Of a DNA stretch of 64,000 bases, positions 626-33,127 are shown piece by piece (the first letter of the stretch is position 1; each line of letters starts with the position of its first letter). The position numbers and the translations under genes were made by a program. Below the pieces are notes generated by a model that saw nothing but the letters and a program-made list of their open reading frames with translations, was not told the DNA's origin and did not search any database. The stretch is from an uncultured Candidatus Saccharibacteria bacterium. Lineage in GTDB: Bacteria > Patescibacteriota > Minisyncoccia > SW-4-49-11. Location of the stretch: assembly GCA_964646465.1 (NCBI GenBank), contig CAZYEN010000029.1, positions 2,670 through 66,669 of the forward strand, written 5' to 3'.

Positions 626-721
626 TAAGGTTAGAGAGTTTGTAGTGACCACTTGCAAAAGCTATAAAGAACATTATCTATATAACATATTTTAGCTATA
701 TTTGCAAGAGGGGGAGTAAAG

Positions 722-925
722 AAAAAACCCCGCTGCTTAGCGGGGTTGGATAGGTGTCCAAAGGCGTTCCAGCCATCTGGTACATTGCTCTGGGCTCATG
801 ATGAGCCAGAACCTGTCCATCTGGACAGGGGGGAGAACCACTGACTTCTCCCTATGGGGAGAGGAAGTTTCTGGTTGCTTGATCTCGAAAGAAATTTGAG
901 ACATTGTTTTATGTCTATTTTCAAT
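722..925 (-). ncRNA. Candidate structured RNA or cis-regulatory leader: GC-rich multi-hairpin transcript ending in an intrinsic terminator
   Basis: On the minus strand, a consensus promoter at 930-958 is followed by about 170 nt carrying at least four perfect 6-8 bp hairpins. Examples are cctgtcca-tc-tggacagg, ggctca-tga-tgagcc, cttctccc-tatg-gggagagg and ccag-atgg-ctgg. The region ends in the hairpin ccccgctaagcagcgggg plus a U6 tail (rc of 722-750). It is markedly GC-richer than its flanks. Confidence 0.35.
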
Positions 926-10268: not shown

Positions 10269-11885
10269 ATGATAGAATTAAATTTAATACAAATACTTTT
10301 AATTACAGTAGGTGTAACAAACTTTGCTTTAGGTCTATTGGTATTACTAAGCTTTAATAAGAAAAAAGATTATAGTAGTGGTTGGTTTGCTTTAGTTGCA
10401 TTTTCTGTTGTTCTATGGACCAGCTCAATGATTGTTTATAGAGGGTTTGATGATGTTAATAATATTGTGCTCTATACAAAAATATTATATAGCTCAGCTC
10501 TATTAATTCCTACAGTATTTTTAATATTTGTCAATAGATTGATTTCTAGTAAATATATATATATCAGTGAGTTTCTAGTTTTCTTTTTTTTCGTTGGTTT
10601 AGGTATATTAACCTTTTTCACCTCATATATTATTGAGTCTGTAATAATTTTTAAACCATTAGAAAATACAATTATATTTGGTGACTTATTTTTTCTTTAT
10701 GTACTATTTTTAATCATTGCATTCAATTTATCATTTTATAATTTACTTATAGAGTATAATCGTTATAAAGGGATAAGAAAAAAACAAATTTTGTTCATCA
10801 TTCTAGGTACAACATTATCTACATATCCTGCTTTTTTTACTAATTTAATATTGCCATGGATCGGAATATTTGCATTTAACTGGTTTGGACAATTATCGAC
10901 TATATTTCTTATTATCTTCACCACCTATGCTATTTTTAAACATCATCTATTTAATATAAAAATGATTCTATCAGAAATTCTTTTGGGAGTTATGGGAATT
11001 GTATTATTTATTTATATTTTTCTTTCTCGTAGCTTGTCTGAGGTAATAGTTAGTATTACATTTTTTATTATTTTTGTTATATTGGGATATAATTTGCTCA
11101 AGGAGTTATTAAGTGGAATCAAAAGAGAAAAAGAATTGGATATATCGAATAGGAAGTTAGAGGATACTATAGAGTCGAAGGATTTGTTTTTGAGAATGAC
11201 TTCCCATCAGCTTAGAACTCCCCTTACCTCTTTAAATGGCTTTTTATCTCTGATTTTAGAACAATGGCAAAGTAAATATAAGATGAATGAATATACCAAA
11301 AATGATATTGTAAAAGTATATATTAATGTACAACGATTGGTTGAATTAGTTAACGATGTACTTGCTCTAAATACAATCAAGGCCGGCAGATTTGGAGTTG
11401 TAATTAGGCCGAATATTGATATTAAAGAGGAGTTAACCTATTTAATTCAAGATAATAAATATATGCTTGATCATTTTACTACTAAAATCACTATAAAAAG
11501 CATAGGAGAAAATTTTATTGCTGATGTTGATAGTGTTAGAATGAAAAGTGTATTTCAGAATTTATTATCTAATGCTATTTATTATGGTAAAGATAAAATT
11601 TGGGTTACTTTGATTGATGAGGGTGATAGGATAAAAATTCGTTTTAGAGATAATGGGAATGGTATTGATATGAGTATAAGAGATAAAATTTTCAACCCTG
11701 GCTTTAGAGCGGTTGGTTTTGATGAAAGAAATCCTAATGGCTCTGGTTTTGGCTTATTTATATCAAAAAATATTATTGATCTTCATCATGGTTCCTTGAA
11801 GTTAAAATACTCGGGGACAGATAATGGTTCTTTATTTGAAATAAAATTACCTAAAAAACCTCTAATTGATAAATACAACAACTAA
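10269..11885 (+). CDS. Sensor histidine kinase (multi-TM sensor domain)
   Basis: The H-box MTSHQLRTPLTSLNGF, the G2 box GSGFGLFISKNI, and about eight N-terminal TM helices. Confidence 0.85.
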   Translation: MIELNLIQILLITVGVTNFALGLLVLLSFNKKKDYSSGWFALVAFSVVLWTSSMIVYRGFDDVNNIVLYTKILYSSALLIPTVFLIFVNRLISSKYIYISEFLVFFFFVGLGILTFFTSYIIESVIIFKPLENTIIFGDLFFLYVLFLIIAFNLSFYNLLIEYNRYKGIRKKQILFIILGTTLSTYPAFFTNLILPWIGIFAFNWFGQLSTIFLIIFTTYAIFKHHLFNIKMILSEILLGVMGIVLFIYIFLSRSLSEVIVSITFFIIFVILGYNLLKELLSGIKREKELDISNRKLEDTIESKDLFLRMTSHQLRTPLTSLNGFLSLILEQWQSKYKMNEYTKNDIVKVYINVQRLVELVNDVLALNTIKAGRFGVVIRPNIDIKEELTYLIQDNKYMLDHFTTKITIKSIGENFIADVDSVRMKSVFQNLLSNAIYYGKDKIWVTLIDEGDRIKIRFRDNGNGIDMSIRDKIFNPGFRAVGFDERNPNGSGFGLFISKNIIDLHHGSLKLKYSGTDNGSLFEIKLPKKPLIDKYNN

Positions 11886-11928
11886 AAATGGGTAGAATAA
11901 TTATATAATCGATTAATGAATATCTAAT

Positions 11929-14640
11929 ATGAAAAAAACTAAAAACTATTATCAGTTATCCATTGAAGAGTCTTTATTGGCTACTAAATCTAATCTTACT
12001 GGACTCACTAATCAGGAAGTATTGGATAGAAGGCGAGAATATGGTGAGAATATATTATTAACTAAGCAAGTAGAATCTCCTATTTGGCTGTTTTTAAAAC
12101 AATTTCATAATGGATTAGTATATGTGCTTTTACTAGCAGCTATTATATCTGTGATGTTTGATCATTGGGTGGATTTTTGGATTATTATTGTAATTATAGT
12201 TATAAACTCGATCATTGGATTTTATCAGGAGTATAGAGCTGAGAGAGCTGTAGTTGCTTTGGCTAAAAAAATATCTGTTAAGACCAAGGTCTATCGGGAT
12301 GGACATCTAGAAGAACATGATGCAAAGGATTTAGTACAAGGAGATATTATTGTGTTGGAGGAGGGTGATAAAGTTCCGGCTGATGCGAGGTTGATTGAGG
12401 CTGTCGAACTACAAACTATCGAGGCTTCTCTTACCGGAGAGTCTCAGCCATCTTATAAATCTATAGATATTATTACAGAAGATGTAGGTATTGGAGATAG
12501 AAGTAACTTAGTTTGGATGGGGACATTGGTAGCTACTGGATGGGCTAAGGCTGTAGTAGTAGCTACTGGAATGAATACAGCTATTGGAGTTATTGCAGAT
12601 GATTTAGACAAAGTAGAAATTGAAAGAACACACTTTCATATTCAAACAGATATATTAGCTAAACAACTGGCTATCTTTGCCTTTAGCTCGGCCGCTATAT
12701 TGTTTGTAATCGGATTTTGGTTTAGACAATTACCATTAGATGAAATGATTGGGTTTACTTTATCCGCTTTGGTTGGAGGCATTCCTGAAAGTTTACCTAT
12801 AGTATTGATTGTAGTATTGGCTATTGGAGCTAAGAGAATGAGTGATAAAAAGGCCATTATTCGCTCTTTACCAGTGACAGAATCTTTAGCTGTGATGGAC
12901 ACTATTATTACAGATAAAACTGGGACTTTGACTGAAAATAATATGACAGTGCAAAAAATATGGGTTTTAGGAGAGGAAATGGTAGATGTTAATGGTAGAG
13001 GCTTAGAGACAAAAGGAGAGTTTACACAAGGGACAAATAATATAATCCCCCTAGATTATCCCGGTATCTCTAAATTATTACATATAGCAGGTTTAGCTCA
13101 TAATGGTCAGATATATGAAGAAGTTTTAGAAGATGGAAGTTCTGTCGTGAAGAGTGTGGGGGACCCAACCGAGGTAGCTTTATCTATTGTCTCAATGAAG
13201 TCTAATCTCAATAAAGATTTACTGGATAGTGATTGGCATCGTTTGGCAGATTTGCCATTTCGTTCGGAGAATAAATTTCGAGCTACTTATCTTCACAATG
13301 TATCTCAAGATACCCATCAATTAATGGCTATTGGGGCTAGTGAGACATTATTGAATTTGAGCAATAAAATTCTAGACAAACAAGGAAATTTAATTTCCTT
13401 GAATGATGAGCATATTCAGGAGATCAATAAGCAAGTAGCACATTTGTCTAAACAAGCAATGCGAGTTATCGCTCTTGCTTATAAAGATGAAAAAGATAAT
13501 TTGAATGGCCTTAATGTTGAACAAGTACAGGATTTGGTCTTTGTAGGACTAGTAGGAATTATAGATCCACCAAGAGCTGAAGTGGCACAAGCCATTGCAC
13601 AAGCTAAACAAGCTGGAATTAGAGTGATTATGGCCACAGGAGACCATAAAGATACTGCTCTTGCTATTGCTAAATCTATTGGACTTATTGATGAGACAGG
13701 TCAAGCTCTTACGGATACTGAAATTCAAGAACTATCTGATAGAGAACTTTATAAAAAGTTAAAGACAATTTCTGTGCTAGCTAGATTAAGCCCTAGAACT
13801 AAAATGCGAGTAGCAGATATTTTTCAAAAACATAAACATATAGTGGCTATGACAGGAGATGGAGTCAACGATGCCCCGGCTCTTAAAAAGGCGGACATAG
13901 GTATATCTATGGGCATCAGAGGCACTGATGTGGCTCGGGAAGCGAGTGATATTGTGCTTACAGATGATAATTTTGTAAGTATAATATCCGCCGTAGAAGA
14001 GGGGAGGGTAATATTTAGGAATGTGCAACAAACTAGTATATTCTTGATTACTACCAGTGTAGCGGAGATTTTATTATTTATATTAAGTTTGAGTTTAGGT
14101 TTACCACTACCACTTTTAGCAATTCAAGTCCTGTGTCTTAACCTAGTCACTAATGGAATCTCAGATATTGCCCTAGCAACGGAGCGAAGTCATAAGAATA
14201 TTCTACTAGAGAAGCCATTACCAGTAAATATGCCAGTAGTCTCACCTAATACCTATCCATATATTATAATCATGACACTTACAATGACTGGTTTAGGATT
14301 TTGGATCTATCTAGCTTATTTGGGCAATGGAATAGAGCAGGCTAGAACAATGTTTTTCTTGTGCTTAGCCTTGATGCAATTAGCTAATACCTATAATATG
14401 CGATCCCCAAAAGAATCATTGTTTAGGATAGGATTTTTCTCTAATAAAATGATAAATCTAGCAGTTATAGCCTCATCCTTGATATTAGTAGCTATGATAA
14501 CTATGCCATTTTTACAAAATATCCTACAATTCACACCCGTTTCTCTATATGATGCAATCTATTATGGCTTTATCTCAATCGTGGTTGTCATCGCCGTCGC
14601 CGAATTCTATAAGTGGAGAATGAGGTTGGAGGGGAAGTAG
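11929..14640 (+). CDS. Cation-transporting P-type ATPase (P2-type, Ca2+/Mg2+-like)
   Basis: The phosphorylation motif DKTGTLT, the hinge motif MTGDGVNDAPAL, a TGES motif, and ten TM segments. Confidence 0.9.
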   Translation: MKKTKNYYQLSIEESLLATKSNLTGLTNQEVLDRRREYGENILLTKQVESPIWLFLKQFHNGLVYVLLLAAIISVMFDHWVDFWIIIVIIVINSIIGFYQEYRAERAVVALAKKISVKTKVYRDGHLEEHDAKDLVQGDIIVLEEGDKVPADARLIEAVELQTIEASLTGESQPSYKSIDIITEDVGIGDRSNLVWMGTLVATGWAKAVVVATGMNTAIGVIADDLDKVEIERTHFHIQTDILAKQLAIFAFSSAAILFVIGFWFRQLPLDEMIGFTLSALVGGIPESLPIVLIVVLAIGAKRMSDKKAIIRSLPVTESLAVMDTIITDKTGTLTENNMTVQKIWVLGEEMVDVNGRGLETKGEFTQGTNNIIPLDYPGISKLLHIAGLAHNGQIYEEVLEDGSSVVKSVGDPTEVALSIVSMKSNLNKDLLDSDWHRLADLPFRSENKFRATYLHNVSQDTHQLMAIGASETLLNLSNKILDKQGNLISLNDEHIQEINKQVAHLSKQAMRVIALAYKDEKDNLNGLNVEQVQDLVFVGLVGIIDPPRAEVAQAIAQAKQAGIRVIMATGDHKDTALAIAKSIGLIDETGQALTDTEIQELSDRELYKKLKTISVLARLSPRTKMRVADIFQKHKHIVAMTGDGVNDAPALKKADIGISMGIRGTDVAREASDIVLTDDNFVSIISAVEEGRVIFRNVQQTSIFLITTSVAEILLFILSLSLGLPLPLLAIQVLCLNLVTNGISDIALATERSHKNILLEKPLPVNMPVVSPNTYPYIIIMTLTMTGLGFWIYLAYLGNGIEQARTMFFLCLALMQLANTYNMRSPKESLFRIGFFSNKMINLAVIASSLILVAMITMPFLQNILQFTPVSLYDAIYYGFISIVVVIAVAEFYKWRMRLEGK

Positions 14641-19329: not shown

Positions 19330-19450
19330 TTAGATTTGAACTATTTCACCCCCCTTTTTTTAGGAGGGGGTGCCTGAAAGGTAGGGGGTGGATTGCTTTT
19401 TGTCTCCCTTAGGAGGGAGTACCCGTAGGGGGAGGGAGGACAGAAAGCAT
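19330..19450. repeat. GC-rich hairpin repeat cluster. It contains a 44-bp unit (19398-19440) that recurs inverted at 30903-30946
   Basis: The hairpins cacccc...ggggtg, ctccct-tagg-agggag and ccc-gta-ggg are present. ttttgtctcccttaggagggagtacccgtagggggagggagga matches the rc of 30903-30946 with two mismatches. Confidence 0.6.
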
Positions 19451-19980: not shown

Positions 19981-20100
19981 ATATATTAGCTACTCTTTTT
20001 ATATTATACCTTTAAATAATTTCAAAGTAAAATATAGGAGAGGGAGAGAATATAGTTCCACCCCGTCAGTCAAAGCCTGCCACCCCTCAAAAGGGGAATT

Positions 20101-20128
20101 CTAAAATAATGTCGGCGAGGGCACCGAC
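20101..20128 (-). terminator. Intrinsic terminator downstream of the V-ATPase D-subunit gene
   Basis: On the minus strand, gtcggtgccctcgccgac is followed by auuauuuuag. Confidence 0.4.
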
Positions 20129-20158
20129 TCTACGAATTCATCATTTACAATTATTCTC

Positions 20159-26376: not shown

Positions 26377-28413
26377 TTATTCAATAACACTGTACTCTTG
26401 GGATCTTGTTACTACTTGCAGTGGTCTTCCTCCAGATTGGAAGAATTTGCTGAAAAACTCTACAAAGTGTAGCCTACCAACATTGATGTAAGTACCTAAT
26501 ACATTAAGAGCTATATTAAATACATTTCCAGCTACGAATATAATTGTCATAATTATATATCCAATTATTACCCAAGCTCCACCTTTTTCTACAAACCCAC
26601 TTCCTGCTAAGTTTGCTAAAGTACCAACTACTCCTGCAATAATTCCAGTAGCAAGGCCTAGAGCTACCAACCTAGTATAGGATAGTATGTCAGATAGATA
26701 TCCTACCACTCCAAAAAAGACATCGTAAGCTCCTTTTCCAAATTTAGCAAAAATGGATTTCATTTCTCTTCCCAAAAGATATATCATCACAAATATATAG
26801 GCTATATATACATATAGTAGGGGATCAATTAATAATTTTAGGCCATCTCCTAACAACTCCATATTAATTAAAATTAGGAATATTCCGAATATTAGAGCTC
26901 CGGCCCATAGAATTGAATCTAGACTGGCATCTAAAAAAGATTTAGAGTTATAAGCTTGAACTATATTGAGCACCAAACCAAATAGTAAATGTACTATTCC
27001 AAGAACGATTGTGAATCCCATTAAAGCGATAACACTATCCATTGGGTTAAGAATCTGCATCTTTTGTAAGAGAGGAATCAAACCAATGTTGATTAGAAAT
27101 TTCATATGTGGTGAGGCTGTAGCAGGATCTACAACATCTGGTGTAATCCCAAACCAACTACCAAATAAAGCTCCAATAATCAATGTAGAGATAGATGCAA
27201 TAAATACAACTGCAAAAATATCTCTAATACCTGATTTTAATCTAGGATTAATTAATCCAAGTCCTGTCAAAATAATCAAAATAAGAGCATACCCTGCCTC
27301 AGATAAAGCCAAACCGAACATAAAGGTGAAGAAAATTGCAATAGACAGGGTAGGGTCAATTTTACCGGCTTGTGGATACCCCATGATTTTTGTGACTGTC
27401 TCAAAATGTCTAATTATTGGAAGGTTCTTCAGTATCACTGGACTTGATTCAAAGTTTGCTGGTAACTCAACTACCTTGCCACTATCAGTGATTTTAGATA
27501 CTGATTGTCTGACAGAATCAAATTGTTCTTCATCTACCCATAATTGTATTGATGAGTTTTCTTCGGATTCTGGATTAAATGAATGTAAATAAGAAATTAA
27601 ATTCAGGTGTGAGTTTAGCACGTCAACTAATATAGCTAAATCCTTGAATTTGACGGGCGATTTTTTAAGTTCTCGTCTTAATTTAGTTAATAACTTATTA
27701 TTTGAGTTAAGCTCTTGTTTACTATTGTGATAAATGTCATAGAAAGATCCACTGACTTCGGCTGGGAATTGTATTAATGTTGCTTGATTCTGTATTATGT
27801 CAATGGCAATTTTAACTTGATTCTTCGGTAGTGCTAAAATATATACGTAATCAGTTCCAAGTTTTTTTACGGATTCCAGTACCATAGGAGATACCGCATG
27901 CTCTAATTGTTCTGCTATATAATGTGCTCTAGACTCGTCTATCAAAAATGGTAAAAAGCTAATGTATGAGTATGATTTAAAGATATTTATTTCAATATCT
28001 TTTAATGGTTCAGATTTAGCAATAATGTCCTGTAGAACCTCCTGACGTATTAGTAGGTCATCTTTTAGCTCTGCCTTCTCTACAATCTCCTTAGCCTTTA
28101 TAATAATATTATCTTTTTCTTTATCATAATGTTCAAACACATCTTCAGTTATACTAAATCTATCATCTAGTACGGCAGAAAGCATTGACTTTTTTTCTAA
28201 ATGGTATTCTTTATATACATCTAGAGCTTTATTGACTATATCTAAGTTTTCTAAAATATCTTCTTGTATAGCATGATGTTTCTTAGAAAGTGGTGTTCTT
28301 TCTACTTTTTCTATTATTTCACCAACTTGTTGTTTTTGAAAATATGATAACAGTTCGAGTTGATGTTTGTTAGGAACTGTAACTTGGATTAGTTTAGATG
28401 CTTTAACTCCCAT
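26377..28413 (-). CDS. atpI: V/A-type ATP synthase subunit I (a)
   Basis: A 678-aa ORF with a soluble N-terminal half and a C-terminal half of 7-8 TM helices, placed second in the operon. Confidence 0.85.
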   Translation of the reverse strand: MGVKASKLIQVTVPNKHQLELLSYFQKQQVGEIIEKVERTPLSKKHHAIQEDILENLDIVNKALDVYKEYHLEKKSMLSAVLDDRFSITEDVFEHYDKEKDNIIIKAKEIVEKAELKDDLLIRQEVLQDIIAKSEPLKDIEINIFKSYSYISFLPFLIDESRAHYIAEQLEHAVSPMVLESVKKLGTDYVYILALPKNQVKIAIDIIQNQATLIQFPAEVSGSFYDIYHNSKQELNSNNKLLTKLRRELKKSPVKFKDLAILVDVLNSHLNLISYLHSFNPESEENSSIQLWVDEEQFDSVRQSVSKITDSGKVVELPANFESSPVILKNLPIIRHFETVTKIMGYPQAGKIDPTLSIAIFFTFMFGLALSEAGYALILIILTGLGLINPRLKSGIRDIFAVVFIASISTLIIGALFGSWFGITPDVVDPATASPHMKFLINIGLIPLLQKMQILNPMDSVIALMGFTIVLGIVHLLFGLVLNIVQAYNSKSFLDASLDSILWAGALIFGIFLILINMELLGDGLKLLIDPLLYVYIAYIFVMIYLLGREMKSIFAKFGKGAYDVFFGVVGYLSDILSYTRLVALGLATGIIAGVVGTLANLAGSGFVEKGGAWVIIGYIIMTIIFVAGNVFNIALNVLGTYINVGRLHFVEFFSKFFQSGGRPLQVVTRSQEYSVIE

Positions 28414-28793: not shown

Positions 28794-30239
28794 TTATAAA
28801 AAAAACTTTTTACGAATGATTTCATCCTGTTCTCTTTGCTTTTCTTCGATTAAATTGATGGCTTTAATTTTGAGGTCTTTTAGGTCTTGGGTGGCAAGTG
28901 CTTGGGATTGTGATTTGAGGTATTCAATATAATTTTTACTAGGGTCCTCTAAAATTTCAGCTAATAGCACATTGAGAATTATTCCTATAATTGGCCCAGG
29001 TTTAATATTGAGTTCATTTATCAAGATATTGCCATCAATTTTGAGCATGGATAAATCTATTGGGTCTAATAAAACCTTCTCAGTCATATATTCAAAGTGA
29101 CGTAGGCGATAGGGGCGGGCCTTTGGCGTACCTGATCCTATACGATCACATTCTCGCAGTTTAATCAAGTCTTTGATATTCTCAGCCCCTACATTACGTA
29201 CTAATTTACGAATTGAGGTCTCTGTAACTTCATTAGTATCATAGTAAAACATATGGTATCTAACTAGTTTAGAGATTCTAGCTGAAAACTTTTTGGGATA
29301 ATGTAATCTGTTCAAAATATCATAAGCCATACTGGCTCCTACTATTTCATGATTATGAAAGGTACAAGTTTTCCCAATACCTTCTTTGGTGCGGGGTTTG
29401 GCAATATCGTGTAGTAATCCGGCCATTCTTAAATCAAAACTCCAATCCATATCACAAGCATGTTGCATAGTTCGTAGTAAATGTTCCCATACGTCATAAA
29501 TATGATGCCCATTTTGCTCTACTCCAATACCTTCCTCTAGTTCTGGCATAATGTAGTGTAGTAGTCTGCTATCTCTGAGCAGAATATATCCATTCATAGC
29601 TCGCGGAGTCAGCATCATTTTGGTGAGTTCATCCCGAATTCTCTCTTGAGCAATATGTTTTAGATTTGGTGCTAACTGTTGTATAGCCTGTAAGGTTTTA
29701 GATTCAATCACAAAATCTAATTGCACAGCAAATCTCACAGCTCGCATTAGTCTCAAGGCATCTTCATTAAATCTATCTTGGGGCTCTCCCACCGTACGGA
29801 TGATTTTGGCTTGAAGGTCATCTAAACCTCCAAAAAAATCCTGAATTTCACCTTGTCTATTCATTGCAAGAGCATTTACAGTAAAATCTCGACGAGCTAG
29901 GTCTTGAGATAGTTCAGACACAAATTCTACTTGCTCAGGGTGTCTATTATCTGTATATTGAGACTCCTCACGGTAGGTTGTAACTTCAATAATCTCCACC
30001 GATTCATCAGGACGGCGATATTTTACCCCCACTGTGCCAAAAGTATTCTCATACACAGAGTCGGGGAATAGCTCTTGAATTTGTACAGGTAGGGCATTGG
30101 TAGTAATGTCCCAGTCTACGGGAGTTTTATTACCTAATACTAAATCTCTCACACTACCTCCAACGATAAAAGCCTCAAAACCAGCTTCTTCTAATGTGTG
30201 CAGGATGAAAAGTATGTGATTCGGTATATTATAATTCAT
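28794..30239 (-). CDS. cca: CCA-adding tRNA nucleotidyltransferase with an HD domain
   Basis: The head motif GGSVRDLVLG..DWDITT, the RFAVQLDF motif and the HD region LLHDIAK. Confidence 0.85.
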   Translation of the reverse strand: MNYNIPNHILFILHTLEEAGFEAFIVGGSVRDLVLGNKTPVDWDITTNALPVQIQELFPDSVYENTFGTVGVKYRRPDESVEIIEVTTYREESQYTDNRHPEQVEFVSELSQDLARRDFTVNALAMNRQGEIQDFFGGLDDLQAKIIRTVGEPQDRFNEDALRLMRAVRFAVQLDFVIESKTLQAIQQLAPNLKHIAQERIRDELTKMMLTPRAMNGYILLRDSRLLHYIMPELEEGIGVEQNGHHIYDVWEHLLRTMQHACDMDWSFDLRMAGLLHDIAKPRTKEGIGKTCTFHNHEIVGASMAYDILNRLHYPKKFSARISKLVRYHMFYYDTNEVTETSIRKLVRNVGAENIKDLIKLRECDRIGSGTPKARPYRLRHFEYMTEKVLLDPIDLSMLKIDGNILINELNIKPGPIIGIILNVLLAEILEDPSKNYIEYLKSQSQALATQDLKDLKIKAINLIEEKQREQDEIIRKKFFL

Positions 30240-30258
30240 AAAAATTTTTGATAAATTG

Positions 30259-30335
30259 TGGAGCCAATGGTGGGGATCGAACCCACGACCTATGCGTTAC
30301 GAATGCATTGCTCTACCAGACTAAGCTACATTGGC
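30259..30335 (-). tRNA. tRNA-Thr (anticodon CGU) with encoded CCA
   Basis: The rc reads GCCAATG-TA-GCTT-AGTCTGGTA-GAGC-A-ATGCA-TTCGTAA-CGCAT-AGGTC-GTGGG-TTCGATC-CCCAC-CATTGGC-T-CCA. I folded this cloverleaf by hand. The anticodon is CGT. Confidence 0.85.
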
Positions 30336-30393
30336 GCACTTTTAGTATAGTCTAAAATAGCTATTAGAGCAATATATAAATAAAAGCCCCCGA

Positions 30394-30741
30394 CTATCTT
30401 AGTGGGGGCTTTAATCTTTGAATTCTTGTGTTTGACCTTAATAATTTTGTATTTCTACGTATCAACTTGTCAATTAGACGATATATATTATCATCTAGTA
30501 AGATTGATATTTGAGGCATCTCAGAACATTGTTCTATTTGGTGGCGAATATGACTTATTGCAGAGTCTATAGTATTAATAGAGTTTCCACTTTTACCAAT
30601 ATCTCGTTGATCATTTTGAGTGATTATCTTTTCTAAACCTGATAAACTAGAAACTGAGATAGTCTTGGATTCTTTAGCTCTTTGTAATAGTTGAAGAATT
30701 TTATTCCATTGTTTATATGAATAAGTGCGTGAGGTCGACAT
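30394..30741 (-). CDS. Hypothetical protein
   Basis: A 115-aa ORF with a GAGG ribosome-binding site 5 nt upstream of the ATG. Confidence 0.45.
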   Translation of the reverse strand: MSTSRTYSYKQWNKILQLLQRAKESKTISVSSLSGLEKIITQNDQRDIGKSGNSINTIDSAISHIRHQIEQCSEMPQISILLDDNIYRLIDKLIRRNTKLLRSNTRIQRLKPPLR

Positions 30742-30819
30742 GAGACTTTCCTCTGTAGATTGGTATTTAGACTATCAAAATCTAAGTTTTATGTCAAATT
30801 ATGATTTATGTCCTCCTTT

Positions 30820-31020
30820 GGAGGAGGTGGCACGAAGTGGCGGTGGTGTATTAGGTTTAATATTATTACAAACAAGTGTTTATTTTAGTATTTCAAAATT
30901 TATCCACCCTCCCCCTACGGGTACTCCCTCCGAAGGGAGACAAAATATCAAATACAGGAGACTGCAAGGTCGCCCCTACGGAAAAACATTATGGAGGGGT
31001 AAACCCTCCGCTACGAGAAA
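30820..31020. repeat. GC-rich hairpin repeat cluster, an inverted copy of the 19330-19450 family
   Basis: The hairpin tcctcc-aaa-ggagga is present. tccaccctccccctacgggtactccctccgaagggagacaaaa (30903-30946) is the reverse complement of 19398-19440. An internal partial duplication (gtaggggcgacc...agtctcc) is also visible. Confidence 0.6.
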
Positions 31021-31044
31021 AAAAAGCCCCGCTGAGTGCGGGGC
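31013..31044 (-). terminator. Intrinsic terminator (gccccgcactcagcggggc plus U8) downstream of the GC-rich gene
   Basis: The hairpin and T-run are seen on the minus strand. Confidence 0.55.
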
Positions 31045-31065
31045 TTGAGTTGTAGGATCGGTGTC

Positions 31066-31632
31066 TCAGGAAGCCATGAGATCAAACAGAAGTTGGTACC
31101 ATTGATCGAGACCATCATTCAGGAGCTCCAATGCTTGGTCATCGATCACCTCCATCACTGGGGGGTGAGGTTTCCCGATGATGGCTGGTTTGCTACCTAG
31201 TTCTTCTCGGACACTCTCCCAATATGAGGCCGTCTTAGTTGAAAGCTGGAAACGTTCTCCAAGGAAGGTGGTATCCATTGAGGGCACCTGCCCAGGTAGG
31301 GTTCTATTAAACTCATTCCGCTCCTCCTGAGCGGCGAGAGACACCAAAGCCTCACGGGCTTTGGTGGCCTGCCCGTAATCAATACGGGCTAGATCCCGTT
31401 CGAGCTCTATGAGCTCAGCACTTCTGTCGCACCAAGGCGACACAAGTCGGTAAAATTCCACCAGCTGAGTGAGAGGAGTTCCTCCATGACTACGGAGAGA
31501 TAGGGCAGTATGAGTCCCTGTAGCTTTCTTCTTCAAGTGTTCCAGCTTCTGCTCCACTTGAGCAGAAGAGGTTCCTAGCGAGCGAAGTCGCTGAGGAATA
31601 TGAAAATTGGAGAGGACTGTGGTGATAGCCAT
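31066..31632 (-). CDS. Hypothetical protein encoded in a ~50% GC island
   Basis: A strong AAGGAG ribosome-binding site lies 8 nt upstream of the Met at 31632. Sampled lines are 45-57% GC, against about 28% for their neighbours. No motif was recognised. Confidence 0.5.
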   Translation of the reverse strand: MAITTVLSNFHIPQRLRSLGTSSAQVEQKLEHLKKKATGTHTALSLRSHGGTPLTQLVEFYRLVSPWCDRSAELIELERDLARIDYGQATKAREALVSLAAQEERNEFNRTLPGQVPSMDTTFLGERFQLSTKTASYWESVREELGSKPAIIGKPHPPVMEVIDDQALELLNDGLDQWYQLLFDLMAS

Positions 31633-31711
31633 TAGGCTAACTCCTTGTAAAATGTACAGAATTAACCATACCACAAAATCAACAAAATGTCAATATATAT
31701 AGACAAATATT

Positions 31712-33127
31712 TTAAGATTTTATAATTACACTTTGCCCGTCTTTATCCTGGATGGTATAGCCTAAATTAGATAATTCTTGTCTTAGTTTGTCAGCTTGTG
31801 CAAAGTCTTTATTAGCTCGAGCTTGATTGCGTTGATTAAAAATTTCTACTATCTCAGCGGGGATTGAGGTTTTGGTGAGGGGTAAATCTAGAGCCAGTAC
31901 TCGCTCTAATCTCTGGAACAATTTGAGTATATGGCGTCTTGGGATGGGCTCTTGTGCGTCTATTGCTGTGTTGACTTCTTTTATAAACTCAAACATAAAA
32001 GCAATAGCCTTTGGGGAGTCTAGGTCAGAGAATAGGGATTTTTTGAAATTATTATAAGTATCTCGGATTAATTTTTGGAGTTTTGGGTTTTTGCGATGGG
32101 GTTTGACTAAATTCACTCTATTAATAAAGTCTATAATTCGCTGGCGTGTTTGTTTGGCTTGCTGTAATGATTCCCAAGAAAAATCTATATCGGAGCGATA
32201 ATGTGCCATCAAGACCAATAATCTTAAATCTAATGGGGAATAGCCTTGAGTAATAATATCATCTAGGGTTATAAAAGTTCCCGCTGATTTTGACATCTTA
32301 TCTGTGTTGATAGTTAGAAAATAGTTATGAAGCCAATAATTAGCCATTGTCTTGCCAGTATCTGCTTTGAACTGAGCTATTTCATTAGTATGATGAATTG
32401 GGATATGGTCTTTGCCTCCTGTATGTATGTCAAATGGTGCATGAAGCAAGGAATCTGCCATTACCACACATTCAGAATGCCAACCAGGGAATCCAATACC
32501 CCAAGGGCTATTCCATTCCATTTGTCTTGTCTCTCCTTTAGGTGAGAACTTCCATAGAGCAAAATCTGAGGGGGATTTTTTCTCTCCCATCTCAACTCTA
32601 GCTCCAGCCTCTTGAGCTTGTAATTTTAAGTGAGCAAAGTCAGAGTATTCTTGTAATTTGGTAGTATCAAAGTATACTCCATCACTTGTAATATAGGTAT
32701 AGCCCTTTTTTTCTAATCTTTTGATTAAATTTATTTGCTCTCTTATATATTCGGTAGCTTTAGGGTAGTGATCGGATGGAAGTACATTAAGCTTAGCTAG
32801 ATCTTCTTGCCAGAGCTTAGTATATTTGATTGCTACTTCTTGGGCGGTAAGTTGTTCTCTTCTGGCTCCTTTTTCTAATTTATCCTCACCAGTGTCCTCA
32901 TCACTAACTAGATGTCCTACATCAGTAATATTAGTGACGGAGTAGACATTATAATTATGTAATTTTAGAGTTCTTTTGAGTAAGTCGTCAAACAGAGATT
33001 TTCTTAAATTTCCAATATGTTGCCTGTCATACACGGTTGGCCCACAACTATATATAGAGACTCTTTTGGGGTGAATGGGTTTGAATGGTATCACTGCTCG
33101 GGCTGGAGTATTATAAAGTTTAATCAT
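31712..33127 (-). CDS. cysS: Cysteinyl-tRNA synthetase
   Basis: The HIGH-type motif CGPTVYDRQHIGN and the KMSKS motif. Confidence 0.9.
   Translation of the reverse strand: MIKLYNTPARAVIPFKPIHPKRVSIYSCGPTVYDRQHIGNLRKSLFDDLLKRTLKLHNYNVYSVTNITDVGHLVSDEDTGEDKLEKGARREQLTAQEVAIKYTKLWQEDLAKLNVLPSDHYPKATEYIREQINLIKRLEKKGYTYITSDGVYFDTTKLQEYSDFAHLKLQAQEAGARVEMGEKKSPSDFALWKFSPKGETRQMEWNSPWGIGFPGWHSECVVMADSLLHAPFDIHTGGKDHIPIHHTNEIAQFKADTGKTMANYWLHNYFLTINTDKMSKSAGTFITLDDIITQGYSPLDLRLLVLMAHYRSDIDFSWESLQQAKQTRQRIIDFINRVNLVKPHRKNPKLQKLIRDTYNNFKKSLFSDLDSPKAIAFMFEFIKEVNTAIDAQEPIPRRHILKLFQRLERVLALDLPLTKTSIPAEIVEIFNQRNQARANKDFAQADKLRQELSNLGYTIQDKDGQSVIIKS

Follow-up and report, generated by a model that had tools for sequence, protein, structure and literature searches.

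A GC-rich, hypervariable gene of an uncharacterised protein family in a fixed slot between cysS and tRNA-Thr of freshwater Paceibacteria

The window analysed here (the whole 64-kb stretch of contig CAZYEN010000029.1, deposited as an uncultured Candidatus Saccharibacteria bacterium) carries between cysS and a tRNA-Thr gene a GC-rich open reading frame (ORF) at 31066-31632, minus strand, which is called X below. In the evolutionary picture that we favour, and that we consider probable without regarding it as settled, X is a protein-coding, hypervariable mosaic gene which occupies a fixed chromosomal slot, occurs in several allele classes and has an excess of secondary structure in its coding sequence, and it is not the recent island that the first-pass annotation of the window had proposed. 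The features on which this picture is based are as follows (window coordinates; below, L003, L045 and the like are genome loci of relatives, and P0177 and the like are individual member proteins of the family).

31066-31632, minus strand: gene X, 188 aa, helical protein of an uncharacterised family, GC-rich hypervariable allele (ORF call and composition)
31665-31693, minus strand: predicted sigma-70-type promoter of X, TTGACA, 17 nt, TATGGT, with extended -10 TG (scores 10/12)
31641-31646, minus strand: ribosome-binding site AAGGAG, 8 nt 5' of the ATG, as read from the sequence
31014-31046, minus strand: predicted intrinsic terminator of X, a 9-bp stem (7 of its pairs G-C; AAGCCCCGC...GCGGGGCTTTTTT) followed by a T-run
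31712-33127, minus strand: cysS, conserved upstream boundary (protein 87-92% identical to relatives)
30259-30335, minus strand: tRNA-Thr (CGU), conserved downstream boundary of the variable interval, where the nucleotide identity to relatives is back to 91-100%
28794-30239, minus strand: gene for the CCA-adding enzyme (cca), conserved downstream neighbour

The GC content of X is 51.5% (0.62, 0.42 and 0.50 at the first, second and third codon positions; GC1, GC2 and GC3, respectively), and that of the window is 32.9%. Among the 46 window ORFs of at least 150 aa, X ranks first in both GC and GC3, the GC3 of the remaining ORFs being 0.16-0.40. The 300-nt GC profile has a peak of 0.51-0.53 over X with about 0.36 on either side, and the rise is limited to about 30800-31700. 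The composition is foreign at all three codon positions and is what would be expected of a gene whose genome has about 50% GC. Thus far the earlier description was accurate: the 188-aa ORF is real, it is GC-rich relative to the window and compositionally alien, and it has its own AAGGAG ribosome-binding site and terminator; the contrast with the neighbours is also real, only the figure of about 28% given for them being slightly low (37-38% in cysS and cca). The promoter at 31693-31665 was absent from that description. With a promoter, a ribosome-binding site and a terminator of its own, X would be a self-contained minus-strand expression unit, as far as can be read from these signals. The terminator stem is kept 3' of every allele class, and TTGACA-17-TATGAT also precedes the very different allele of L052.

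A family member is present in the cysS-X-tRNA-Thr-cca slot in every relative examined (freshwater Paceibacteria/Parcubacteria, including five GTDB species representatives); the gene-bearing species representatives are metagenome-assembled genomes labelled Paceibacterota, Parcubacteria, Paceibacteria and Minisyncoccia, with one Saccharibacteria, which places the host among the Parcubacteria of the Candidate Phyla Radiation. The gene order (T2SSE-like ATPase, TsaE, PfkB, FemAB, VanW, CysS, X, variable spacer, tRNA-Thr, CCA-adding enzyme, 88-aa ORF, V-type ATPase genes) was identical in ten of ten look-ups of slot alleles, GC-rich and other. The GC-rich orthologues have a GC content of 50-55% and a GC3 of 0.49-0.63 between flanks of 33-35% GC, the allele of L041 being lower (44% GC, GC3 0.38), and this GC-rich allele lineage is common to at least 12 distinct genomes or assemblies.

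The alleles in this slot are far more divergent than the genes around them. Between L005 and L007, the flanking proteins are 93-99% identical and the X protein 67%; between L052 and L045, the corresponding values are 91-95% and 21%. The synonymous divergence (dS) between L005 and L009 is 1.13 in X and 0.083 in cysS, and that between L005 and L007 is 0.52 and 0.185; in the closest pairs the dS of X is 3-14 times that of cysS, and the divergence among X alleles is saturated (dS 0.5-2). Because the dS of X is so far above that of cysS, the X alleles must be much older than the genomic backgrounds in which they are found. In identity scans the divergence begins near the start codon and stops mid-gene or in the spacer, the halves that are shared vary by pair, and pairs of alleles with 64-76% identity elsewhere have near-identical blocks in common. 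For L003, L005, L007 and L009, the informative sites form two runs: 102 in a row pair L003 with L005 and L007 with L009, the 63 that follow pair L003 with L009 and L005 with L007, and the third possible grouping has no site in its favour. This quartet shows a single clean crossover, located at alignment columns 360-403 (window 31297-31257). Exchange also extends beyond the gene: between L003 and the L005/L007 lineages, CysS and the CCA-adding enzyme are 96-98% identical, as against 62-83% for PfkB, FemAB, VanW and V-ATPase subunit I, and a segment across the X slot (the equivalents of window 28794-33127) has moved between species-level lineages. The conserved promoter and terminator ends could act as recombination arms. 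In the allele of L011 (8001-8576), there is one in-frame TAA where the others have GAA/GAG (Glu) or CAA/CAG (Gln), the gene being otherwise intact, and P0029 is frameshifted in its second half; these two cases, which look like occasional pseudogenes or sequencing errors, suggest that X can be lost. Since several alleles come from one sampling series (KRAE22-1), alleles co-exist in one environment; the source metagenomes are JGI 3300027762, SRR5468437 and this series (ERR5954464/68/73). As a separate observation, V-type ATPase subunit I (window 26377-28413, minus strand) is 52% identical to its L045 counterpart (10612-12654) and 81-85% identical to those of other relatives, and in L045 this gene, too, may have been replaced.

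X belongs to an uncharacterised family of about 180-aa helical proteins. It does code for a protein, because the ratio of nonsynonymous to synonymous divergence (dN/dS) is 0.22-0.57 in all 15 pairs of six X alleles (0.06-0.13 in the adjacent cysS), indels among the alleles stay in frame, and AlphaFold2 with 122 family sequences gave a confident fold (pLDDT 92.2, pTM 0.84). The AlphaFold2 run with the 26 close alleles only was poor (pLDDT 51). In the model, X is predicted to be a soluble helical bundle with a partly extended insert (approximately residues 100-158) that bears the most conserved motif. The search of 5.8 billion protein clusters yielded 28 homologues (about 190 aa, 48-69% identical, without a Pfam domain), and the profile search of 1.84 billion representative proteins yielded 201 clusters at E<=1e-3, mostly of 170-200 aa. 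The motifs common to the family are VSPW(H/C)DR, (N/D)YGQ, AGR..YG.NRT..GE.VT, FLG..GL.T..V..W and QA; S65, D69, R105, N109-R110-T111 and W138 are invariant. Its named members belong to Candidatus Sungbacteria and Paceibacterota, and homologues of 150-170 aa are found on IMG/VR contigs (mostly 140-190 kb) and in one GenBank gut phage; the search of GenBank phages from a phage homologue returned a single unannotated record. Some members (L019 5770-6222, from a phage, and P0070, P0095 and P0125) have one or more N-terminal transmembrane helices, and in these the conserved domain would be membrane-anchored. For X itself, neither a signal peptide nor a lipobox was recognised by eye in the N-terminus MAITTVLSNFHIPQRLRSLG; no predictor was run.

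That the protein carries no recognisable motif, as had been noted from the sequence, was borne out by Pfam, NCBIfam, PHROGs and PADLOC, which gave no match for X nor for 60 family members. Pfam also found nothing on the longer, fusion-like members, PDB sequence profiles against the X family gave noise only, and Foldseek of the X model on PDB and BFVD gave no fold match (E>0.3). Outside this clade, the family gene stands alone in unrelated neighbourhoods, so its context gives no functional clue, and the PHROG annotation of genes beside the phage homologues was uninformative. In one such neighbourhood, L015 3000-10300 (Parcubacteria, about 58% GC), a member lies in a stretch of 45-53% GC with about ten small hypothetical genes, flanked by a DUF4012 gene and murJ; this stretch may be a variable islet too.

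Not every slot holds a GC-rich allele. That of L045 (P0177) keeps the family motifs, has a GC content of 30% and a GC3 of 0.23 and is 26% identical to the X of the window, and the flanks of L045 (CysS 91%, CCA-adding enzyme 89% and VanW 84% identical to the window) are as close as those of the GC-rich genomes. In L052, a near relative of L045, the slot allele (174 aa, 38% GC, GC3 0.37, 34% identical to the X of the window) has kept the N-terminus of the GC-rich class and lost the core motifs; its flanks are 77% (PfkB), 71% (FemAB), 84% (VanW) and 92% (CysS) identical to the window. The AT-rich member in the same slot of a close relative indicates that the GC-rich form is one old allele lineage. 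In the neighbour-joining tree of 122 members, the GC-rich class falls in one clade with P0031 and the degenerate P0034, P0044 and P0036; the AT-rich slot allele of L045 is not sister to the X class, its closeness rank (20th of 121) being like that of members from other Parcubacteria. In GC-richer Parcubacteria, whose genomes have 47-58% GC, the family genes have 50-55%, and from these values donors with a matching composition appear to exist within the phylum. The phage homologues have a GC content of 33%, equal to that of their contigs, so the fold does not demand GC-richness. An old foreign origin of the GC-rich allele lineage is plausible.

The transcript of X, including the terminator, folds at -237.5 kcal/mol, compared with -200 +/- 6.4 for dinucleotide shuffles (z -5.8). 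Across the GC-rich alleles (11 of full length, plus the truncated ORF of L011), z was -1.2 to -5.5, and for seven neighbouring-gene segments it was -1.3 to +0.6. The excess persists under codon-order permutation (z -2.7 to -7.2) and, for the GC-rich alleles, under a synonymous-codon shuffle in which protein and codon usage were kept (z -3.4 to -5.1). In the codon permutation X was first of 45 window ORFs (z -6.05; the others had a mean of -0.56, a standard deviation of 1.26 and a minimum of -3.55). Three of the seven distinct GC-rich perfect hairpins (stem >=7 bp) of the 64 kb fall within the 567 bp of X. The hairpin excess in the GC-rich class is, in our view, real. In a structure derived from the same sequences on which it was tested, six hairpins of the conserved central block had 84% of their cells paired (32-40% with partners slid by 1-3 columns), and 10 pairs and 15 cells were changed on both sides, which was reached by 3/500 and 0/500 shuffles. 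One helix stays paired through nonsynonymous changes (CGGG/CCCG, CGAU/AUCG, CAAGA/UCUUG, CGAGC/GCUCG), and in helix 2 the presence of G-U wobble pairs speaks for the sense RNA and not for DNA; both strands of X score well for folding. An excess is seen in some of the distant members as well (L015, z -4.9; phage L021, z -4.4; phage L019, z -3.4), and in the motif-less allele of L052 the hairpin excess is lost (z -0.7). A conserved RNA architecture across distant members was not supported, and the structure conservation index (SCI) of the whole-gene consensus fold was 0.21.

We propose the following account of these results. In a clade of freshwater Paceibacteria, X sits in a fixed expression slot (promoter, ribosome-binding site and terminator) between cysS and tRNA-Thr/cca, and homologous recombination, both among strains and across species, would exchange the coding sequence in the slot and shuffle it anew; such allele replacement would give deeply diverged alleles in nearly identical backgrounds. 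The GC content of about 50% would be the mark of one old allele lineage, other genomes holding an AT-rich allele or a decayed one of intermediate GC. Three further proposals are made with clearly less confidence than the picture stated at the outset. The GC-rich lineage may have begun as a xenologue from a GC-richer Parcubacterium, displacing the resident homologue. Its GC may then have been upheld by selection for stable transcript hairpins and/or by recombination (allele renewal, GC-biased conversion), as it has not fallen to the 22% GC3 of the host although synonymous divergence is saturated. The protein may act in genetic conflict, most likely between phage and host, to which rapid turnover, occasional pseudogenes, phage-borne homologues and the stand-alone context point.

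The possible forces keeping X GC-rich are foreign origin with slow decay, hairpin selection and recombination-linked effects, and they are combinable. Foreign origin with slow decay fits the lower-GC allele of L041 and the degenerate allele of L052. Hairpin selection fits the occurrence of GC excess, structure and intact motifs together and their joint loss in L052. Biased conversion is hardly the only cause, because the GC boundaries are sharp and an AT-rich allele is found in the same hot slot.

Several results weigh against the account proposed above. No donor was found, the closest sequences beyond the allele class being 30-35% identical among about 15 billion proteins, and the close-allele alignment search gave no match in IMG/VR; in the JGI metagenomes the same type of search gave three loci only. 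Singleton changes from G/C to A/T numbered 34 and those from A/T to G/C 25 (12 and 5, respectively, at third positions); this direction test is underpowered, a ratio of about 4.6:1 would be expected at the present composition if host mutation pressure acted alone, and the third-position counts fit slow decay and equilibrium alike. The Sungbacteria member has no hairpin excess (z -1.07), one control segment there having -3.56, and the hairpin positions are not conserved among distant members.

The hairpins could also be given a larger role. Genes for tRNA and rRNA are GC-rich in AT-rich genomes through RNA-structure selection, and if the family were under nucleic-acid-level selection for dense local hairpins across the coding sequence, and if this, not foreign origin, gave the GC-richness, X would be a protein-coding counterpart of such genes; we regard this as possible and rather unlikely. 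The hairpins could protect a conflict gene's transcript from RNases that attack single strands only; alternatively, they could be the trace left by fold-back (quasi-palindrome) template switching, a source of multi-site changes that diversify the protein.

Another reading, to which we give the same low credence, is that the locus encodes a large structured non-coding or dual-function RNA, with the ORF secondary and the GC content a result of RNA-structure selection. It would account for the folding energy of all GC-rich alleles, far below that of the dinucleotide, codon-permutation and synonymous-codon shuffles, for the first rank of X among the 45 ORFs, for the compensatory, partly nonsynonymous changes in the central hairpins with G-U wobbles that favour the sense RNA, and for the joint loss of motifs, GC excess and structure in the degenerate allele of L052. 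A second GC-rich structured mini-unit, at 737-904, is also in its favour; the feature is as follows.

720-904, minus strand: second small GC-rich unit, 55-codon ORF (MSQISFEIKQ...), 51% GC, GC3 0.59, with its own GC-rich terminator at 726-747

This unit folds better than its synonymous and codon shuffles (z -3.2 and -3.7), and it has no Rfam match. The RNA reading is opposed by the protein-level constraint on X and by the coevolution in the family alignment that backs the confident fold; in addition, no Rfam family was matched even at E<=1, the SCI is low, the hairpin positions differ between distant members, AT-rich members fold well without GC-richness, and one member has no excess. A purely non-coding RNA is excluded by the protein constraint, the lack of an Rfam match, the low SCI and the unshared hairpin positions.

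GC-biased conversion via heteroduplex repair has been proposed for recombining bacterial genes, and at a recombination hot spot it might have driven GC up; its known effects in bacteria are of a few percent, not of about 30 points of GC3. The intense recombination exactly at X, and the GC3 rise, the largest of the three codon positions, would be expected under this explanation. However, conversion tracts should bleed into the flanks, and the GC edges are sharp at the start codon and the terminator; cysS and cca (about 37-39% GC) have been exchanged too and have not risen, and the AT-rich allele of L045 was not GC-enriched in the same hot slot. A resembling case is the Borrelia vls locus, with 47% GC in a genome of 24-29% GC (PMC5995427). 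As the main driver of the composition of X, biased conversion appears to us less likely than either of the RNA-level explanations.

The remaining part of the variable interval between X and tRNA-Thr contains two further features.

30808-31012, minus strand: cluster of short GC-rich hairpin repeats (REP/BIME-like), several units starting with CGTAG
30394-30741, minus strand: second small fast-evolving gene (115 aa), without a family and preceded by a putative TTGACA box

The unit set of the repeat cluster varies between strains, and related hairpin units lie at 19340-19445 and 20040-20140 of the window; TGTCTCCCTTAGGAGGGAGTACCCGTAGGGGGAGGG is among the recurring units, and CGTAGGGG occurs three times against 0.24 expected. 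Judging from this distribution, the cluster seems to belong to a dispersed REP/BIME-like family and not to be a local mobile element. The 115-aa protein is 50% identical to its L045 homologue between flanks of about 90%, its relatives share a C-terminal ...TPLN, and it has no Pfam or PHROG match; in other strains its place is taken, or shared, by different small ORFs of 84-106 aa. X, the repeats and this fast-evolving gene together make the whole cysS-tRNA-Thr interval a variable islet between conserved genes.

The first-pass annotation had explained X as a single-gene island of recent horizontal origin, possibly brought in through the repeat element beside it. The sharply foreign composition at three codon positions and the nearby repeats and tRNA gene would suit such an island, which we nevertheless consider very improbable. 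The gene is present with a like GC skew in relatives, five GTDB species representatives included, which is the outcome that the first-pass annotation had itself named as refuting a recent acquisition; the slot is filled in all relatives examined, most of the alleles are equally GC-rich, and with dS saturated at 0.5-2 the lineage is old. No integrase or transposase gene and no flanking direct repeats were found in the cysS-cca interval, the repeat search around X gave short pairs only, probably by chance, and the tRNA-Thr gene lies 730 nt from X with its 5' end, not its 3' end, facing it. The promoter and terminator are common to AT-rich or decayed alleles, and nothing shows that the repeats, a dispersed intergenic family, moved X. 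What stands of the proposed horizontal origin is allele replacement and intragenic recombination among relatives, in place of a recent island insertion.

An assembly chimera or contamination, in which a GC-richer fragment would have been joined into an AT-rich contig, has only the abrupt change of composition in its favour and can, as far as sequence alone shows, be practically disregarded, since two contigs assembled independently, one from JGI and one from Logan, agree with the window at 100% over both junctions of X; the same architecture is also found in about twenty assemblies from different projects, and the ORF is continuous with a promoter and a terminator of host type. A toxin-antitoxin pair of X and the 115-aa ORF is unsupported: each of the two has its own promoter, a terminator and repeats separate them, and neither matches a family. 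X was also considered as the target of a diversity-generating retroelement and rejected, no reverse transcriptase being found in the called genes from the T2SSE-like gene to the V-ATPase genes and the variation lying in blocks over the whole of X, not in a short 3' region.

Genomes of the Candidate Phyla Radiation (CPR) are tiny and usually described as streamlined and stable. In one conserved chromosomal slot of such genomes, a gene turns over faster than anything around it, with allele identities down to 21% in strains that are otherwise about 93% identical, and this pattern suggests that an unstudied family, which occurs across Parcubacteria and on large phage contigs, is under strong and continuing conflict, probably with phages. 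The locus can be described as a single-gene cassette, hypervariable and recombining, from an uncharacterised family of CPR bacteria and phages. A GC excess of 20 points has outlasted saturated synonymous divergence, alongside a hairpin-dense coding sequence, and X thus offers a tractable natural case of what holds one gene off the mutational equilibrium of its genome (mRNA-structure selection, biased conversion or repeated import). For annotation pipelines, it is a caution that a compositional island need not mean a recent acquisition.

Among known systems, the large ornate RNAs GOLLD and ROOL resemble X in length (about 600 nt), in strong predicted structure, in a position beside a tRNA gene, and in their occurrence in lake metagenomes with phage relatives. 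Unlike them, X has no Rfam match, is under purifying selection at the protein level and has a confident predicted fold; there was no Rfam hit at the gathering score in the window, and in 30200-31800 none at E<=1 except weak terminator-like noise. X is not a known non-coding RNA and not a member of GOLLD or ROOL. The repeat cluster resembles enterobacterial REP/BIME elements in its short GC-rich imperfect palindromes, which are intergenic, follow terminators, form strain-variable mosaics and occur at several loci, whereas its unit sequences are unrelated to theirs; a RAYT-type (IS200/IS605-like) transposase was not seen, although no search aimed at one was made.

The Borrelia vls locus is likewise a hypervariable, shuffled, GC-rich coding sequence in an AT-rich genome, with alternating conserved and variable blocks. 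VlsE, however, is a lipoprotein of the cell surface whose variation arises within a single cell line, through conversion from silent cassettes next to its gene, whereas the variation of X is between strains. X is not a member of the vls/pil type of cassette antigenic variation, because no signal peptide was recognised by eye, no silent cassette or paralogue (no second copy by tblastn or blastn) was found in the 64-kb window, and there is no sequence or fold similarity.

In its behaviour, the X locus comes nearest to flexible islands of the replacement type and to xenologous displacement at a conserved site, as known from O-antigen and capsule loci and from marine hypervariable regions. Like these, it occupies the same chromosomal position in all strains, has conserved flanks as recombination arms and alleles far more divergent than the genome, and keeps its diversity within one environment. 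It differs in that those islands are surface-polysaccharide clusters, whereas X is one small gene that looks cytoplasmic and carries a promoter and terminator of its own, which also recombines intragenically and of which one lineage lies 20 GC points off its genome.

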